Below, piece by piece: positions 22,596 through 30,684 of a stretch of 33,831 bases of DNA (position 1 is the stretch's first letter; every line of letters starts with the position of its first letter). Origin of the DNA: a virus (lineage: Duplodnaviria; Heunggongvirae; Uroviricota; Caudoviricetes); the IMG/VR virus record IMGVR_UViG_2681813321_000006. One strand, 5' to 3'. The notes beneath the pieces were generated by a model that worked only from the letters and a program-made list of their open reading frames with translations, made no database searches and had not been told where the DNA came from. The translations under genes and the position numbers were made by a program.

Positions 22596-23018
22596 TTATG
22601 CCGCCGAGCAGCTCCTACGCAAAGTCCTGATAGCCTGAGGCTTTGACTGAACCGACTGATCCATTTCGAGCACCACATCCAGCATGGCTAAGCAACCGTC
22701 AATAAATCCCTCTGCCGCCTGAAGCCTCTTCAGAACGTGGGTGTGAGATACGCCGAGCTTCTCACCCATCGCCCGCACGGGCATGGCCTGGACGTAATGC
22801 CACTCAAGGAGCGTGCACAGATACGGATCTTTTTTCTTCAGGCAGCTCATAGCGGAGTTGATGATAAGACCGTCATTGTCACTGCATTTCAGCCTTCCAG
22901 ACTGCGTCGCGGGTAGCAGATTCTTAAACCCGGCTGCAACAGGAGGAAAGTAGACGCTACCACCTTCACTCGCTGCCCAGCCACCCCAGCGCTCTAAAAC
23001 CTGTTGAATATTACGCAT
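22596..23018 (-). CDS. Q: Late-gene antiterminator, lambdoid Q-like
   Basis: 140 aa; N-terminal MRNIQQVLERWGGWAA... and overall pattern match my recollection of Phage_antitermQ-type proteins. Lies upstream of intrinsic terminators and the lysis cassette. ATG with GAGGT upstream. Confidence 0.75.
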   Translation of the reverse strand: MRNIQQVLERWGGWAASEGGSVYFPPVAAGFKNLLPATQSGRLKCSDNDGLIINSAMSCLKKKDPYLCTLLEWHYVQAMPVRAMGEKLGVSHTHVLKRLQAAEGFIDGCLAMLDVVLEMDQSVQSKPQAIRTLRRSCSAA

Positions 23019-23146: not shown

Positions 23147-23319
23147 CCTGTACCAATCTGTACCCACCTGTACCAGCTCTTTTCAAACCTTTTCCCCAAG
23201 CGACTTATATATATATATGGGGTTCTTAGTAATTAGGTTGGTACAGATGGTACAGTTGGTACTGACCTTTAAATTCAATTAGTTAAAATGTACCAACCTC
23301 TATTTTGAGGCTGGTACAG
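23147..23319. repeat. Iteron-like array of the 7-mer CTGTACC/GGTACAG flanking a (TA)n tract; putative replication origin or regulator binding array
   Basis: Direct copies at about 23148, 23158, 23168 (10-bp phasing) and 23289; inverted copies at about 23240, 23249, 23258 (9-bp phasing) and 23313; TATATATATATAT at 23206-23218 between the arrays. Confidence 0.55.
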
Positions 23320-25492
23320 GTTGGGACACCGCCTCAAAAATTCGAGTCATTTTCCCCCCAATTCGCCTTTGGGCACGCTTATACCCGCAATTTTGCAAAA
23401 CATTACTAATTCGCATTTCTTCGCGTTTTCCGATGCGGTCAGGATTTAGCCCAATCGCATCACGCAAAACATCACTTGCGCGTAAAAATTCGCAATTTCG
23501 CGGAAGTTCATTAGTCATCAGGTCTGGCGTGTCGAGCCATTTCTCTACCGTTTCAAGCCAAGCATCCTTGATGGTGTACTGTTCATGGACACTCGCTGCC
23601 AGTTGTTCAGCCTCACGGAACTGGATACCCCCCAGACGCTGAAACACCTCACGAGCCTCAGCCCAAAGTAAAAGGAGATCTCTTTTTATCGCTTTCACGT
23701 CGACTTTCGACACTTCCACGGGGAGCCAGCGACGGTTACCAGTCTTGTCCGCAAGGAATTCGTCCTCATTGGTGGTACCAACGAACACCAGGCGACGAGG
23801 AAACTGGGTGGCGAACTCCCGGTATTTCGGGATCCAGTTTTCGTGAGTACGCGTCACAAACGCTTTGATTGACTCCAGCTCTTTGGTATTAAGTCCGCGC
23901 AGTTCACCAATCTCTGCCACCAGCCGACCACGCATTTTTCGAGCGAGATCATCGTCTTTTTCGGCAAAAGAGATTTCAGTAAAAAACGCAGGATCAGGGC
24001 TCAGTGCCTCCACTCCGGAAGACTTACCGCAGCCCTGCGGACCAACGAGGATCGGCACCATATCCGCTTTGATGCCTGGCTCCAGTACTCGCCCCGCCAA
24101 CGCGGTCCACATGTACATAGACACCGCACGGGTATAAGGCGTGTCGGCTGTACCGAAGTGCGTATGGTAGAAACATTCGATGCGCGGCACGCCATCCCAC
24201 TCCAGCCCGTTCAGCCAGGTAATCGCTGAATCGAATGGTTGTTCATCGGCTGCAAGTAACACCACATCGCGAATAAGTTCACGACCAACAGGTTTAAATC
24301 CCCGCTTTTCCATCGTGATGCGCAGGCGCGCATAATCCGCATCGGTGAATGCTCGCCATTGTCCGGATCCTGCAGAGGCAAACATGATTTCGTCGCGGAA
24401 CTGGTCAAAGCGAATATCGATGTCCACAAAATCAGGGCGTACTACTGCTTTGGCTGCGTTGCTGATGGTTGCCTCGATACGCCCCCATTTATCACGCTCG
24501 AAAGCAGGCAGCGGTAAAGGTTCCGCCACTTCGGTGCTGGTCAGATCTTCGAAATCGTCGTTGCGGATCCCGATGGCATTAAGGAAATCTCCGTCATCAC
24601 GATGCGCACAACTGGCATGCAGGCATTTAAAATGCCCCTGCTCAAAGCCCGCGGTTCCCGCAGGAAAATAAGCTGTGCTTGTTGGATCGCCCCCGCTACT
24701 GTGGCCGTCTTCAAACGGACAGCGGATATATCGTTCACCATTTGCGCCATCCAGCAGCGTCCAGCCATTGGCATCAAGATATTCAGCTGTATCATCCGTC
24801 GCGCCGGGCGTGAATGCTGATCGGTCGCGCATCTTCGTGTTGCCCGCTTCGGTGGTTACCGACACAGGGAGTTGTTCAGCCAGGCGCTGCCACAGCGTTT
24901 CAAGCTGCTCACCAGTAATAGCCGGAGGTTCATCCGGCAAACCACCGTCCCATTCAATACGCGCGCCGCTGCTGTGCGTACCACAGGCAACGAACTGCTG
25001 CCCGTTCGCCAGCAACTCGATAATGCCCATATCCCCCGCCAGGCGATGGATACGCTTACAGAAATCACCATCAACGGCCAGCAGATACAGACACTTATTA
25101 CTGTTTGCTCGCCAGCGTCGCGGCGGCAACTCCCCCAGAAGTTGCACAAGCGTTTTGCGAATATCTGCCTGAATGTCTTCATCTTCGCTATCGCAGTCCA
25201 GCGCCAGCCAGCCATGGCCTGTACGCACGCAGATGCCATAATCCGGTTCATTCGACCAGCGGGCAAAATCATGCTCAGTAACAACATACCCGGTCCATTG
25301 AGCAATACCGGTGACCTGGCGGTCCCGGTTATAGCGACTTGGCGTCTTACCCAGCGCTTTCAGTTTACTATCAGGGGATATGGTCGCACCGGGGTTACAT
25401 ACAACTGGGAGAAGATGATCAGTTCTCCCCAATACCAGGTCGAAATGAAACCACTCATCAGGCGTAGCTCCCCATGGTTTGCTATCGGACAT
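23300..25492 (-). CDS. Primase-helicase (N-terminal prim-pol-like domain, C-terminal P-loop D5/VirE-type ATPase)
   Basis: 730 aa. Walker A GPQGCGKS and Walker B-like RRLVFVGTTNEDE in the C-terminal half. N-terminal LALDCDSED (DxD) and CGTHSSG motifs fit AEP prim-pol domains. Start coupled 3 nt after the cro-like stop. Confidence 0.7.
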   Translation of the reverse strand: MSDSKPWGATPDEWFHFDLVLGRTDHLLPVVCNPGATISPDSKLKALGKTPSRYNRDRQVTGIAQWTGYVVTEHDFARWSNEPDYGICVRTGHGWLALDCDSEDEDIQADIRKTLVQLLGELPPRRWRANSNKCLYLLAVDGDFCKRIHRLAGDMGIIELLANGQQFVACGTHSSGARIEWDGGLPDEPPAITGEQLETLWQRLAEQLPVSVTTEAGNTKMRDRSAFTPGATDDTAEYLDANGWTLLDGANGERYIRCPFEDGHSSGGDPTSTAYFPAGTAGFEQGHFKCLHASCAHRDDGDFLNAIGIRNDDFEDLTSTEVAEPLPLPAFERDKWGRIEATISNAAKAVVRPDFVDIDIRFDQFRDEIMFASAGSGQWRAFTDADYARLRITMEKRGFKPVGRELIRDVVLLAADEQPFDSAITWLNGLEWDGVPRIECFYHTHFGTADTPYTRAVSMYMWTALAGRVLEPGIKADMVPILVGPQGCGKSSGVEALSPDPAFFTEISFAEKDDDLARKMRGRLVAEIGELRGLNTKELESIKAFVTRTHENWIPKYREFATQFPRRLVFVGTTNEDEFLADKTGNRRWLPVEVSKVDVKAIKRDLLLLWAEAREVFQRLGGIQFREAEQLAASVHEQYTIKDAWLETVEKWLDTPDLMTNELPRNCEFLRASDVLRDAIGLNPDRIGKREEMRISNVLQNCGYKRAQRRIGGKMTRIFEAVSQPVPASK

Positions 25493-25495
25493 GGG

Positions 25496-25708
25496 TTAAG
25501 CCTTTTTATCGTTTTGTGAGCCATACAACAGCCAATTAGGGTCGCAATCCAATGCTATAGACATTTCAAGAAGATAACGTGGCCGAGCAATAACACCACT
25601 TTCAATTCTGTTTATTGCCTGCTGGCTCACTCCTGTGAGCTCAGCCAACGTAACTTGCGTCATTTTGAGTTCTTTACGTCGTTCTTTTACTCGGGTCGCT
25701 AAGGTCAT
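25496..25708 (-). CDS. Cro-like HTH regulator (XRE family)
   Basis: Track start 25726 is TTG; ATG 25706-25708 has GAGGTG upstream. HTH MTQVTLAELTGVSQQAINRIESG. Divergent from the CI-like gene. Confidence 0.65.
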   Translation of the reverse strand: MTLATRVKERRKELKMTQVTLAELTGVSQQAINRIESGVIARPRYLLEMSIALDCDPNWLLYGSQNDKKA

Positions 25709-25828
25709 TGCTTTCACCTCATACAATTTTAGTGGTATTTAGCAACAACAAATGAGGTTTGTCAAATACAACAAAAATTGTTTTTAATGTGGGTATACAC
25801 ATTAATACAACCCAGAAGGACTAATCCC
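25709..25828. promoter_or_regulatory. Divergent cro/cI control region with operator-like repeats
   Basis: 120-bp AT-rich intergenic region. Perfect inverted repeat TTAATGTG-ggtata-CACATTAA at 25784-25805. ATACAA recurs at about 25721, 25766 and 25805. Confidence 0.5.
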
Positions 25829-26452
25829 ATGTCTCTCGCAGCCCGTTTTAAAGCACGTCGTTTGGAATTAGGAATGACTCAAGTGGAAGTAGCGAATTCT
25901 GCAGGGGTTAGCCAACAATCCATAGAATCCATCGAAAGTGGACGAACCAGAAAGCCACGCAATCTTCTGGATCTGGCTAAGGCCTTGAAATGTAGCCCAG
26001 ACTGGCTACTGAACGGTAAAAATATTATGCCTCTCGCGGAGATAAGTACCAGACGCATACCTATATTAAGTTACGTTCAGGCAGGAGAGCTTACAGAAGC
26101 AAGAGACATAACAGATCTGACAGGGGAATTTGAATATATTTTGGCAGACTCTGACATTCCAGAAACATGCTTCGCATTACGTATTGATGGCGACAGCATG
26201 CAACCAGAGTTTAAAGAAGGAGACATTGTTATCATCGATCCTGATCTATGTCCTGCACCAGGGGAGTTTGTTGTCGCCAAAAACGACGGTCACGAAGCTA
26301 CATTTAAAAAATACCGTCCATTAGGAATCGGCATCGACGACTTTGAATTAATCCCCCTAAATCCTGATTACCCTATTTTTCGTAGTGCAGATATGAACTT
26401 ACAGATCATAGGTGTAATGATCGAACACCGTATTTACCGCCGTAAACGTTAG
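25829..26452 (+). CDS. CI-like repressor (HTH plus S24/LexA-type autopeptidase domain)
   Basis: Refined ATG 25829 with GAAGGA upstream. N-terminal HTH MTQVEVANSAGVSQQSIESIESG; C-terminal GDSM (catalytic Ser) and downstream Lys (VVAKNDGHEATFKKY) as in lambda CI/LexA. Confidence 0.8.
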   Translation: MSLAARFKARRLELGMTQVEVANSAGVSQQSIESIESGRTRKPRNLLDLAKALKCSPDWLLNGKNIMPLAEISTRRIPILSYVQAGELTEARDITDLTGEFEYILADSDIPETCFALRIDGDSMQPEFKEGDIVIIDPDLCPAPGEFVVAKNDGHEATFKKYRPLGIGIDDFELIPLNPDYPIFRSADMNLQIIGVMIEHRIYRRKR

Positions 26453-26471
26453 TATTCCCACCGTAAATATC

Positions 26472-26491
26472 GGGAGGCGTAACAGCCTCCC
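26472..26491 (+). terminator. Stem-loop downstream of cI (terminator-like, weak U-tract)
   Basis: GGGAGGC-gtaaca-GCCTCCC, 7-bp perfect stem, 20 nt after the cI stop; followed by TTACCCCATTTG rather than a clean T-run. Confidence 0.4.
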
Positions 26492-26498
26492 TTACCCC

Positions 26499-26518
26499 AT
26501 TTGTAAAGTCTTACAAAT
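26499..26518. promoter_or_regulatory. 20-bp palindromic operator-like site ATTTGTAA-agtc-TTACAAAT
   Basis: 8-bp perfect inverted arms, 4-bp spacer, immediately after the cI-distal hairpin and upstream of the rightward replication operon. A related inverted repeat ATACAA-N6-TTGTAT lies at about 26587-26604. Confidence 0.45.
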
Positions 26519-26774
26519 TAAATTCACTTAAATATCAATAAAGTAGTATTCACACCCCACAAAATACCACGTTTGCGGTTTACACAATACAACTCAAATT
26601 GTATCTTTAGCCACAAGTCGAACGGCGCGACTCTAAACCATGCGTCGGGACCGTGGCGGGACAGGATGTCGGCAATACGGGTCAGTAAGTTCCCTTTGGG
26701 GTGCGGCGAAGCACTGCCTACTGATACAAGTCGAAGCCGCCGAACCACCAAAGTGAACTGAATGAGGAAACGGC

Positions 26775-26969
26775 GTGAAAACATATAAACCGCTCAAAGG
26801 TGAATGCCCTGCTTGCCAAACACAGCTTCAGACACCAAAGCCAAAACGATACCAAATCAACGAATGTTATGAGCACTGCCCTGGATGTGGTGCTTTCCTG
26901 CATACCATTGCAACGCACTGGCGTGTCCGCTTCAACCTTGTGGTACCACGTACGCACAATACCAACTGA
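26775..26969 (+). CDS. Small zinc-ribbon-like protein
   Basis: 64-aa ORF, GTG start with GAGGA upstream. Two CxxC pairs (CPAC, CPGC) about 20 residues apart; followed by an intrinsic terminator. Confidence 0.4.
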   Translation: MKTYKPLKGECPACQTQLQTPKPKRYQINECYEHCPGCGAFLHTIATHWRVRFNLVVPRTHNTN

Positions 26970-27000
26970 ATCATCCATGTAATTGCTGTGTGTAGTCTTT

Positions 27001-27026
27001 GCCCGCCGCAAGTGACGGGCTTTTTT
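27001..27026 (+). terminator. Intrinsic terminator after the zinc-ribbon ORF
   Basis: GCCCG...CGGGC stem followed by TTTTTTAT. Confidence 0.5.
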
Positions 27027-27085
27027 ATGTCTGAAAGCGCACTCGCAACAGCGCGCTCCCCGATATGAAAAAAGGAATACAACCG

Positions 27086-27235
27086 ATGAAACCTGAACAC
27101 CTCTATCGACTGACGGGGCGCGATGTTCTCCGTTATCGCCGTAAAAACTTCGATTTGATGACCGGTCTGGCCGTTGCCACTGCGCTCGGTCTGATCATCA
27201 CTTTCATTCTCCTTGTTGCGAGGACCACAGTATGA
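27086..27235 (+). CDS. Small single-pass membrane peptide (49 aa), translationally coupled to the next gene
   Basis: ATG 27086 with AAGGA upstream. Product [49 protein letters not shown] has a basic N-terminus and one C-terminal TM helix. Stop TGA overlaps the ATG of the 300-aa ORF (ATGA). Below track cutoff. Confidence 0.3.
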   Translation: MKPEHLYRLTGRDVLRYRRKNFDLMTGLAVATALGLIITFILLVARTTV

Positions 27236-28134
27236 GTTTAGAAACCAGTCTCGAACTTAATAATCAACTTCTGGCACAACATAATGCGCTGCTTGAACGT
27301 CTTATCCGCACAATGGCATCAGGTATTGTTATGCATCCTGACACGATTTCACGAGTGCAGGAATGTCGGGATACAGCAACTGAAACTGAAAATATGTCAG
27401 CGGCAATGACACTGGATGATCTGGAGTTCAGCGACGTTATCGCACTGGCTGGTTTCTACCCGGTAGCCACCCCTATCACAGAAGACATGCTGCAACGTGC
27501 TGTTGCCTACCGTGATGCTGAAGGCGATAAACGAGTAGTTCAGATTGATCCTCTCGACAGCGCATTGCAGGGCGTCAAACGAGCCAGGGCACTGCATAAA
27601 CCCGCTCTTCTGGACCTGTCCCGTAACATTCTTAAGTTCTGGGACGACCTGCCAACCATCGGCGAGCGACGTGCTTTTGCCGAGCAACTACTTGATGCAC
27701 CTGCAGATGGGCGTGATGAAGTTAAGCCGAAAAAGGCCAGTAACAAAGATGGAGAACGCACGGGGCCGTTTTACGTCAAAAATGTATCCGGCACAGCAGC
27801 CAGTGAACTCCACACCTTACGCAAGTTGAACGAGATGCTTAAAAAAGGCCATATCGAGATCAACCGTGTTGAGTACCTTCAGCTGCAGGAAGAATTTGCA
27901 CGCAGAGACGCAGCAAATTCCAGCCAGAATAATGACGCCAAAGATGACCATACAATTGATTTCGCGGCACTACGCAAACAAGCTGAAGGGTTGATCCTCC
28001 AGTTAGCAAAAGGGGGTTACCGGGCAGAAGCTATTGCAATTCTGGAAAAACAGGGAGCCAGGAAACTTGGTGAAGTAACGGATGAAAATCTCGCTGAAGT
28101 AATCACCCTGGCTGAAAAAGCACTGGAGGGTTAA
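27232..28134 (+). CDS. Hypothetical protein heading the replication operon (unknown function)
   Basis: 300-aa ORF, mostly helical and acidic by composition; 2-nt gap to the nuclease gene. No motif recognised. Confidence 0.45.
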
Positions 28135-30054: not shown

Positions 30055-30684
30055 TCACTCAGGAATCTTAATCTTTCTCAATTCTTTATTTAGTTCACAG
30101 ATCTTTTTCTTAGACGGGAAAGTATCATACATCCAAAAACCAACAGTCTCTAAAACTATTATCATAACCATATACACAAGATAATTTAAAAGGCCTTCAT
30201 TTTGCCCTATGGAAATAATGCAGATAATAGAAAAAAGGGTAAACAGCACAAAACACAGAAAGGAAAACAGACGACTAATAATAAATAAAAAACCTGAAAA
30301 ATCAACATTAATAAAAAACACTCCGTTATCTTTCTCTATATAATTCTGAAGCTTAATCAACTGATTTATATACTGTCTTTTTTCTAATCTATTGCAAATG
30401 TAAATAACATCTCTTCGGTTATAAGATGATTGCAATTTCAGCGCATCACGAATAATTTTATCATTTATTCTTTTTTCTATGGCACTCTTATCCTCCTCAT
30501 CCAGATAACGTTCATACTTAACTAAATATAAAATTAACTTCTTAACATATTTAGGCTCTTTATACTTATAATTAAAAATGATCTTTCTTATCCAGACTCC
30601 CATAACAATCAAACATGAAAAAATATATCCAGCTATTTTCTCCAGATGCTCTGTATGGTCAATCAAGTATTGGATCATATGCAT
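30055..30684 (-). CDS. AT-rich multi-pass membrane protein inserted antisense in the replication operon (moron; candidate exclusion/abortive-infection effector)
   Basis: 209-aa ORF at about 28-30% G+C (hand count) versus about 60% in the flanking polymerase gene. Hydrophobic segments IAGYIFSCLIVMGVWI, FLFIISRLFSFLCFVLFTLFSIICIISI, LLNYLVYMVMIIVLETVGFW; Lys/Tyr-rich cytoplasmic region. Opposite strand to both neighbours. Confidence 0.55.
   Translation of the reverse strand: MHMIQYLIDHTEHLEKIAGYIFSCLIVMGVWIRKIIFNYKYKEPKYVKKLILYLVKYERYLDEEDKSAIEKRINDKIIRDALKLQSSYNRRDVIYICNRLEKRQYINQLIKLQNYIEKDNGVFFINVDFSGFLFIISRLFSFLCFVLFTLFSIICIISIGQNEGLLNYLVYMVMIIVLETVGFWMYDTFPSKKKICELNKELRKIKIPE

Follow-up and report, generated by a model that had tools for sequence, protein, structure and literature searches.

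What opens the replication operon of a temperate phage from the side of its repressor gene? The question is raised by positions 26453-27235 of a 33,831-nt stretch of tailed-phage DNA (IMG/VR record IMGVR_UViG_2681813321_000006; hereafter the window). This region separates the gene of a CI-like repressor from a 300-aa gene that leads the replication operon, and PGAP annotates no feature in it between cI and a 49-aa open reading frame (ORF). Our analysis suggests that the region is quite probably an HK022-type control region of the early left arm, with a CI-repressed PL promoter, a put (polymerase utilization) antiterminator RNA and a terminator that resembles the 3' end of the small RNA RprA, a reading for which homology, conservation of structure and layout all argue. 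All features that an initial annotation had listed here are present in the sequence, at or within 2 nt of the positions it gave, and several of them acquire a different meaning. A diverged syntenic relative, prophage L292 of Enterobacter bugandensis, has the same gene order as the window, with a synonymous divergence (dS) of about 0.5 in the two small genes of the region and saturation in cI.

The put RNA is the central element. A sensitive blastn search against phage genomes matched approximately 26603-26687 to putL of HK022, HK75 and O276 at 79%, and also to phiEt88, UPF_BP1, S9-5 and APC_JM3.2, the match following a repressor gene in each phage. Residue 1 of the RNA (26614) lies 7 nt after the -10 hexamer of a promoter described below. 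We numbered residues according to the cryo-EM structure (Hwang et al. 2022, PMC9378689), and the architecture tested was one of about 70 nt with a 5' duplex (3-7/15-19), a stem I (10-14/30-34) and a stem II (36-72). When the cryo-EM pairs were laid on 18 distinct put sequences, 96.7% of the cells were paired and seven pairs had changed on both sides; neither this percentage of pairing nor the covariation score was attained in any of 500 shuffles, and slid controls paired at 23-50%. A covariance model built from this alignment has a single credible match in the window, at 26614-26685 on the plus strand (90.1 bits, E = 5e-16), and detects no second put and no putR on either strand of the window, the next best hit scoring 9.2 bits (E = 1.5). 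In L292 the element is 100% identical. By homology and covariation, then, 26614-26685 is a homologue of HK022 putL, and by analogy with HK022 the predicted RNA should have antitermination activity. It was left unannotated because Rfam has no match on it: the whole window yields nothing at gathering thresholds, and a search of the region at E up to 10 returns nothing overlapping put.

The homology extends to the residues that matter in the structure. In HK022, A9 and G35 form a platform for the zinc-binding domain of the beta-prime subunit, U28 inserts into a beta-prime pocket, and a -10-like NANNAT at +23 to +28 is specific to putL (PMC9378689). The window RNA keeps A9, G35, U28 (the latter two at 26648 and 26641), G42-G43-C44 and A63-A64-U65, retains the non-canonical block G42-U65, G43-A64, C44-A63, and has a -10-like, sigma-pause-like AACCAT at +23 to +28 (26636-26641). 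Mutations that inactivate putL fall in the A3-G7 duplex and at A9, U28, G35, G45 and A64 (PMC9378689), and all residues reported as essential by mutation are found in the window put, A5 being a U with a compensating change of U17 to A. Within residues 6-37, which include stem I, the RNA is that of HK022 except for position 17, which pairs with residue 5 and compensates its change, and position 20, a U-to-C change at a residue reported to be inert (PMC9378689). The paired exchanges relative to HK022 are A5-U17 to U-A, G38-C70 to C-G and C41-G66 to U-A; in upper stem II one base has been lost from each strand and the remaining pair is flipped, giving the variant GGGACCGUGG... A scan of one genome per species further placed put in prophages of Morganella, Providencia, Gilliamella, Symbiopectobacterium, Pantoea, Kluyvera, Siccibacter and Winslowiella, with stem II further diverged.

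The promoter in front of put was located by a consensus scan for its hexamers, and its -35 and -10 elements align base for base with the annotated pL of HK022/O276. In L292 the -10 TATCTT reads TAGATT, which retains the TAnnnT pattern. Embedded in this promoter is the operator OL1. Its sequence, ATACAA-N6-TTGTAT, occurs with at most one mismatch at only three sites in the 33.8-kb window, namely OL1 and the two operators between cro and cI, and a repeat finder paired 26574-26602, as a 29-nt, 76% direct repeat, with 25753-25781 between cro and cI. L292 has the same OL1 except for its last base, and the spacer upstream is about 92% identical (counted from the alignment); the two weak operator-like sites in that spacer, 26532-26549 and 26564-26581, may be OL3 and OL2, respectively. 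OL1 would thus be the target of the CI-like repressor, placed to block the promoter. The initial annotation had considered this inverted repeat to be related to an AT-rich palindrome further upstream; the repeat is there and is perfect, but its kin are the OR operators and not the palindrome. Because the operator in the promoter matches the sequence of the cro/cI operators, the same repressor is implied and not a second specificity. Nor can the layout be called non-canonical, as had been proposed: HK022, O276, phiEt88, UPF_BP1 and APC_JM3.2 all share the order repressor gene, pL, putL and first early gene, which in the annotated, HK022-derived immunity region of O276 reads CI, pL -35/-10, putL, nun. 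Judged by this order, the promoter and operator at 26579-26607 are a canonical lambdoid OL/PL arm.

Two further observations concern the same DNA. Segment 26558-26578, CCACAAAATACCAC(G/A)TTTG(C/T)GG, is polymorphic among Escherichia coli copies; in most of them an inverted repeat of better quality, ACCACATTTGTGGT, adjoins the -35 element, and in the window copy this repeat is imperfect. The cI genes of the window (25829-26452) and L292 (1544-2167) encode proteins that are 93% identical with synonymous sites saturated (dS about 3.5), and the PL-put DNA directly 3' of cI is nearly identical between E. coli and E. bugandensis, which indicates either a mosaic junction or an unusually strong constraint.

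A GC-rich hairpin stands between cI and the promoter. Its 7-bp stem is as the initial annotation described it and is stable (-16.1 kcal/mol; z = -4.4 in folding against shuffles). At the end of cI in L292 lies a hairpin of other sequence (-14.3 kcal/mol), such that structure is kept and sequence is not. The cI (PRM) transcript presumably ends, or is terminated, at this hairpin, which would keep lysogenic transcription out of PL and put.

Downstream of put, the left arm meets an intrinsic terminator, GCCCGCC-gcaagt-GACGGGC (stem 27001-27020 with one mismatch; T6 27021-27026), and the terminator that the initial annotation had reported was confirmed, with a GC-rich hairpin and a U-run next to it. 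A simple terminator scanner missed it, which we attribute to a loop exceeding the limit when only the perfect 5-bp stem is counted. What sets this terminator apart is the sequence leading into it. A permissive Rfam search aligned 26921-27030 with RprA (RF00034) over the 3' domain of the latter, with 48.2 bits and E = 8e-5; the gathering score of 70 is not reached, and by the Rfam criterion 26970-27026 is not an RprA gene. In a blastn comparison with 5426 E. coli genomes, essentially every genome contributed a match of its chromosomal rprA to 26981-27026, and the alignment with K-12 rprA has 24 of 24 consecutive bases identical (26981-27004) followed by a terminator hairpin of other sequence. 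Processing leaves the 3'-terminal 47 nt of RprA (Brosse et al. 2022, PMC9262595), and RNase E makes this form through cleavage at GA/AUU (Chao et al. 2017, PMC5222698). The window has the same succession of AUUGCUGUGUGUAGUCUUU, hairpin and U-tail; it has an RNase E-type UA/AUU where RprA is processed, and the identity to RprA begins at this processing site. In contrast, no similarity to the 5' stem-loops and the central rpoS-pairing region of RprA was found upstream of 26981, where the coding end of the 64-aa ORF lies, and the 5' two-thirds of RprA, including the region that pairs with rpoS, csgD and hdeD, are absent from the window. While RprA is transcribed from the ydiK-ydiL intergenic region under Rcs control, the window copy, with its different hairpin sequence and without most of the pairing region, lies in the 3' UTR of a phage gene whose promoter is repressed by CI. 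Since identity has been kept where neighbouring dS is about 0.5, put, OL1 and the RprA-like stretch are all strongly constrained.

The RprA-like module is widespread on mobile elements. It was found in related E. coli phages that share DNA with the window only from 26973 onward (a mosaic joint), in a P1-like phage-plasmid, in Erwinia N4-like and jumbo phages, in Cronobacter phage phiES15 and Escherichia phage LLS, in at least 120 IMG/VR contigs representing about 85 different sequence contexts, and in about 100 large conjugative plasmids of Klebsiella and Raoultella (loci L006 and L127-L233 for IMG/VR, H74-H105 for phages and H106-H130 for plasmids). In other phage groups, too, it lies a few hundred bases after a repressor gene and ahead of early genes. 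As this survey fixed the seed sequence, the 300-aa protein was added as an unbiased anchor; among the loci so obtained, 31 of 37 distinct upstream regions have the module (our own count from the alignment). Variation in the seed amounts there to three single-base variants, whereas the 5' flanks belong to several unrelated classes and the hairpin loop is variable. The hairpin itself covaries (GCCCG/CGGGC, GCCCA/TGGGC, GCCCC/GGGGC and GCCTG/CAGGC), nearly always with a T-run next to it. The phage and plasmid copies that we tested score 50-63 bits on the Rfam RprA model, all below threshold, and this is why no copy of the module is annotated. We found no publication on the module, on its seed in a phage context or on a phage-encoded RprA, in a searchable literature that is incomplete. 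The module and put occur together in 19 loci (18 fetched loci and the CB9615 copy of this prophage), 267-909 nt apart, and 15 put loci taken from species representatives all lack the seed within 2.5 kb; the two are independent. In Escherichia phage vB_EcoM-606R2 (locus L004, 1500-2500), the same module follows another immunity region, with another GC-rich leader after the repressor gene and, just upstream of the module, a gene inserted on the minus strand and two direct copies of ACTGTAGGGGT; this arrangement of leader and repeat may be a different antitermination device.

Taken together, these elements lead us to infer repressor binding, antitermination and any small-RNA function along the following lines. 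In a lysogen, the CI-like repressor would bind OL1, and maybe the two weaker sites upstream, and shut the promoter as it would at cro/cI, while the hairpin behind cI would end the cI transcript. Upon induction, RNA polymerase would start near 26613-26615, and the first 72 nt of its transcript would fold into the put RNA, bind the beta-prime zinc-binding domain of the very polymerase that made it and render this enzyme resistant to pausing and termination. Polymerase modified in this way would transcribe the 64-aa gene, read through the terminator and continue into the gene of the 49-aa peptide and the replication operon; polymerase lacking the modification would stop at the terminator. The order of early promoter, polymerase-modifying signal, first small gene and a terminator passed by modified polymerase only is that of lambda N/nut and tL1, with the difference that neither an N protein nor nut is involved in the window and that the modification is proposed to be made by RNA alone. 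Transcripts that do terminate would end in about 45 nt (26982-27026) resembling processed RprA, with its 5' sequence, UA/AUU, GC hairpin and U-tail, and the terminated 3' UTR could yield an Hfq-type small RNA that mimics RprA. We hypothesize that such a mimic would act on host mRNAs.

Several observations weigh against parts of this reading. The folding energy of put is indistinguishable from that of shuffled sequences (z = +0.7), leaving homology and covariation as its support; we attribute this to a reliance on non-canonical and tertiary contacts formed on the polymerase. U68 of HK022 put, the deletion of which abolishes antitermination (PMC9378689), is a G in the window, still as an unpaired bulge in lower stem II. 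The hairpin after cI has no clean U-tract. No conserved private promoter was found for the RprA-like RNA: an internal candidate in the 64-aa ORF, TTCAAC-N18-CACAAT, is weak, is not conserved in E. bugandensis and was rejected. When targets of the RprA-like seed were sought inside the phage, the best RNAduplex energy was -21.9 kcal/mol against a mean of -21.0 kcal/mol for shuffled seeds, and none stands out. Moreover, a high output of small RNA from PL is unlikely, because an effective put would leave few transcripts ending at the terminator.

These last points bear on the most serious alternative, which holds that the RprA-like stretch is an efficient mobile terminator and nothing else, that its identity to RprA reflects shared ancestry or recombination, and that the conserved 20 nt serve termination or 3'-end stability without a role in trans. 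In its favour, the stretch always comes with a hairpin and a U-run and is located where modules join, as at the mosaic joint of 26973; polymerase modified by put would pass it by, no target was found within the phage, and every copy remains below the Rfam threshold for RprA. However, the hairpin drifts freely while the single-stranded 20 nt before it are almost invariant across unrelated contexts, which is the pattern of a base-pairing seed and not of a terminator, and the conserved part starts exactly where RNase E creates mature RprA. The conservation of the seed beside a varying stem and this coincidence with the RNase E site speak for the mimic hypothesis. In its fullest form it says that the terminator is one of a large, unannotated family of small RNAs of mobile elements copying processed RprA, with an invariant 20-nt seed and a varying terminator; that in temperate phages the family typically supplies the first terminator beyond the immunity repressor gene and that it also occurs in P1-like phage-plasmids, in Klebsiella and Raoultella plasmids and in lytic Erwinia phages; that put would split polymerases between two fates, stopping with release of the mimic or reading into the operon; and that induction would inject an RprA-like signal into the Rcs/RprA network of the host. 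Taken as a whole we hold this extended proposal only tentatively, at somewhat less than even odds, and we would place a terminator without any role in trans at the same level.

The first gene that the modified polymerase would transcribe is the 64-aa ORF, which starts with GTG 6 nt after a GAGGAA Shine-Dalgarno sequence and encodes the two CxxC pairs that had been noticed before (C11xxC14 and C35xxC38) plus C31. It is unlikely, in our view, that this ORF is not a gene and that the interval is a long structured leader kept open by chance. PGAP does not call it, its protein falls into only three clusters among 5.8 billion proteins, near-identical E. coli copies differ by 6 synonymous and 12 non-synonymous changes, which is less convincing, the Pfam matches stay below the cut-offs (zf-IS66, 24.3 versus 27.3; Zn_ribbon_TFIIB, 19.9 versus 22), and the AF2 model is helical with low confidence (pLDDT 62.5). 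Yet relative to E. bugandensis the count is 16 synonymous to 17 non-synonymous changes (dN/dS 0.24) without indels, the five cysteines are invariant, the other two frames are closed, and the ribosome-binding sequence is in place. A zinc ribbon is plausible from the CxxC pairs, not established. The 49-aa ORF further downstream matches phrog_11981 over its full length (E = 9e-37) and has a dN/dS of 0.27; its start and Shine-Dalgarno sequence are kept in relatives whose 300-aa proteins are only 62-76% identical, in which an upstream ATG at 27065 is lost. Its single transmembrane segment and the overlap of its stop with the start of the 300-aa gene were borne out, the latter taking the form of ATGA (27232-27235), a translational coupling. 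By their dN/dS values, both ORFs are conserved genes, as the initial annotation had presumed. One hairpin precedes the ribosome-binding site of each small gene, and pairing is kept with changed sequence in diverged relatives: the leader hairpin before the 64-aa ORF (26690-26757) retains its stem in L292, where one pair has changed in a compensatory manner, one mismatch is repaired and 11 nt are inserted at the apex, and at the position of the hairpin before the 49-aa gene (27036-27057) the alignment with diverged relatives shows hairpins of different sequence.

Far less probable is the reading of the initial annotation itself, a second and non-canonical checkpoint in which another DNA-binding protein, perhaps the Cys-rich product or Cro, would gate the replication operon from the palindrome at 26499-26518. 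The palindrome has perfect symmetry, its occurrence by chance within a 161-nt spacer has a probability of about 2%, its arms are invariant among near-identical E. coli copies, and a small Cys-rich protein is encoded nearby. However, palindromes with 8-nt arms are not enriched in the window (seven observed versus 4.6 expected by chance), and this one lies about 60 bp upstream of the -35 element. In L292, 4 of its 20 positions differ, leaving six of the eight arm positions symmetric and no demonstrable constraint on the palindrome, against a conservation of about 92% over the 60 nt that follow. On inspection it also gave no convincing match to the consensus of IHF sites or of promoters. The operator that lies within the promoter shares the cI/OR sequence, and the layout is canonical; with the symmetry of the palindrome lost in E. 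bugandensis, a second DNA-binding specificity is unsupported. What survives of the second checkpoint is a separately regulated start and a terminator ahead of the operon, and these belong to a canonical arm of unchanged repressor specificity. Absent from the initial annotation were the promoter hexamers, the put RNA, which would decide whether the terminator gates the operon, the leader hairpin at 26690-26757, the RprA-like 3' UTR and the hairpin at 27036-27057. A second perfect palindrome lies just before the start codon of cI, TTAATGTG-ggtata-CACATTAA (25784-25805), distinct from the ATACAA-N6-TTGTAT operators, which is probably the cro/cI palindrome with which the initial annotation had compared the first. 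The least probable reading, that put is a remnant without function which has travelled with the promoter, could appeal to the replaced U68 and to an apical stem II one pair shorter than in HK022, but put is 100% identical where the neighbouring synonymous dS is at least 0.5, its differences from HK022 are compensatory, and a terminator separates it from essential replication genes.

Table 1. Coordinates of the features discussed, in the numbering of the window; functions are predicted.
Feature	Position	Strand	Remarks
Q-family antiterminator	22596-23018	-	
Prim-Pol/VapE protein	23300-25492	-	
Cro-like helix-turn-helix protein	25496-25726	-	
Two OR operator copies, cro/cI intergenic region	25721-25738 and 25766-25783		1 mismatch each
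CI-like repressor	25829-26452	+	helix-turn-helix and S24 peptidase
GC-rich hairpin, 20 nt after the cI stop	26472-26491	+	GGGAGGC-gtaaca-GCCTCCC
Perfect AT-rich palindrome	26499-26518		ATTTGTAA-agtc-TTACAAAT; no function supported
Conserved spacer with two weak operator-like sites	26532-26581		26532-26549 (3 mismatches); 26564-26581 (4 mismatches)
Early promoter, PL equivalent	26579-26607	+	-35 TTTACA 26579-26584; 17-bp spacer; -10 TATCTT 26602-26607
Operator OL1	26587-26604		perfect ATACAA-N6-TTGTAT; spans promoter spacer and -10
put antiterminator RNA, putL type	26614-26685	+	blastn, covariation, covariance model
Leader hairpin between put and 64-aa ORF Shine-Dalgarno	26690-26757	+	-23.7 kcal/mol, z = -2.3
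64-aa Cys-rich ORF, first gene of early operon (N/nun position)	26775-26969	+	not annotated by PGAP
RprA-like 3' UTR	26970-27026	+	26981-27004 (AATTGCTGTGTGTAGTCTTTGCCC) identical to RprA; terminator 27001-27026
Small hairpin between terminator and 49-aa gene Shine-Dalgarno	27036-27057	+	-8.7 kcal/mol, z = -1.6
49-aa single-pass membrane peptide	27086-27235	+	ATG 27086; annotated by PGAP
300-aa gene, first large gene of replication operon	27232-28134	+	phrog_6784, E = 1e-179

The window represents an E. coli prophage. Strain FDAARGOS_1059 matches it with 100% identity and O55:H7 CB9615, in which the prophage adjoins yfhL, with 99.6%. Matches to 26453-27235 occur in 153 of the 5426 complete E. 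coli genomes, 36 of them over most of the length of the region. On the plus strand, the 300-aa gene is followed by genes for DUF2800, DUF2815 and a DNA polymerase. The idea that the RprA-like locus is a relic of attP/attB was rejected, as the integrase and the yfhL junction are 10 kb away at the prophage end and the element lies inside an operon. On the Cro arm, a strong intrinsic terminator (23289-23318, minus strand; a 12-bp stem and a T-run) lies between the Prim-Pol/VapE and Q genes; this arm has no put copy that could account for leftward early transcription reaching Q. Within the rightward replication operon, a 209-aa hydrophobic ORF (phrog_10579; 30055-30684, minus strand) runs antisense, with several promoter-like sites, and looks like a moron-type insert.

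How does this cassette compare with known systems? The HK022 putL antiterminator and its PL/OL region were reportedly described by King and colleagues in 1996 and by Banik-Maiti and colleagues in 1997, and put homologues are said to have been recognized by sequence in enterobacterial prophages by King and colleagues in 2011 (J Bacteriol 193:5784); put-like RNAs were identified here in Erwinia phiEt88 and in Salmonella UPF_BP1 and S9-5. As in HK022, the put of the window comes directly after a repressor-controlled promoter that follows cI, has the same length and two-stem architecture, and is followed by an intrinsic terminator. Unlike in HK022, stem II has three compensatory pair changes and has lost one pair, with a G in place of the U68 bulge; put is single, without a putR on the Cro arm; the operon is a replication module of polymerase A, DUF2800 and DUF2815 instead of lambdoid recombination genes, and there is no nun; and the first terminator carries RprA-like sequence. 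As a candidate, the RprA-like element would resemble 3'-UTR-derived Hfq small RNAs such as CpxQ, which are cut from the end of an mRNA and share its terminator (Chao et al. 2017, PMC5222698), and also prophage small RNAs that enter the small-RNA network of the host, such as DicF or AgvB and AsxR (Tree et al. 2014, PMC4104026). In contrast to AgvB and AsxR, which are anti-small-RNAs mimicking targets, the window element, known here from its sequence, copies a small RNA itself. The cassette thus appears to be a new member of the HK022-type PL-put family, in which the RprA-like terminator is potentially a new part.

With PL/OL, the put RNA, a small Cys-rich gene and the terminator, the interval between cI and the operon is now labelled, and these labels explain how the replication operon of a widespread family of E. 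coli prophages would be switched on. As put RNAs have no Rfam family they go unreported, and the covariance model built here finds them cleanly. If the RprA-like module is expressed, then mobile elements would have copied the active part of a core regulatory RNA, and not its targets, repeatedly in unrelated phages and plasmids. The module, if expressed, would also offer a direct handle on the role of processed RprA, which is still unclear (Brosse et al. 2022, PMC9262595).

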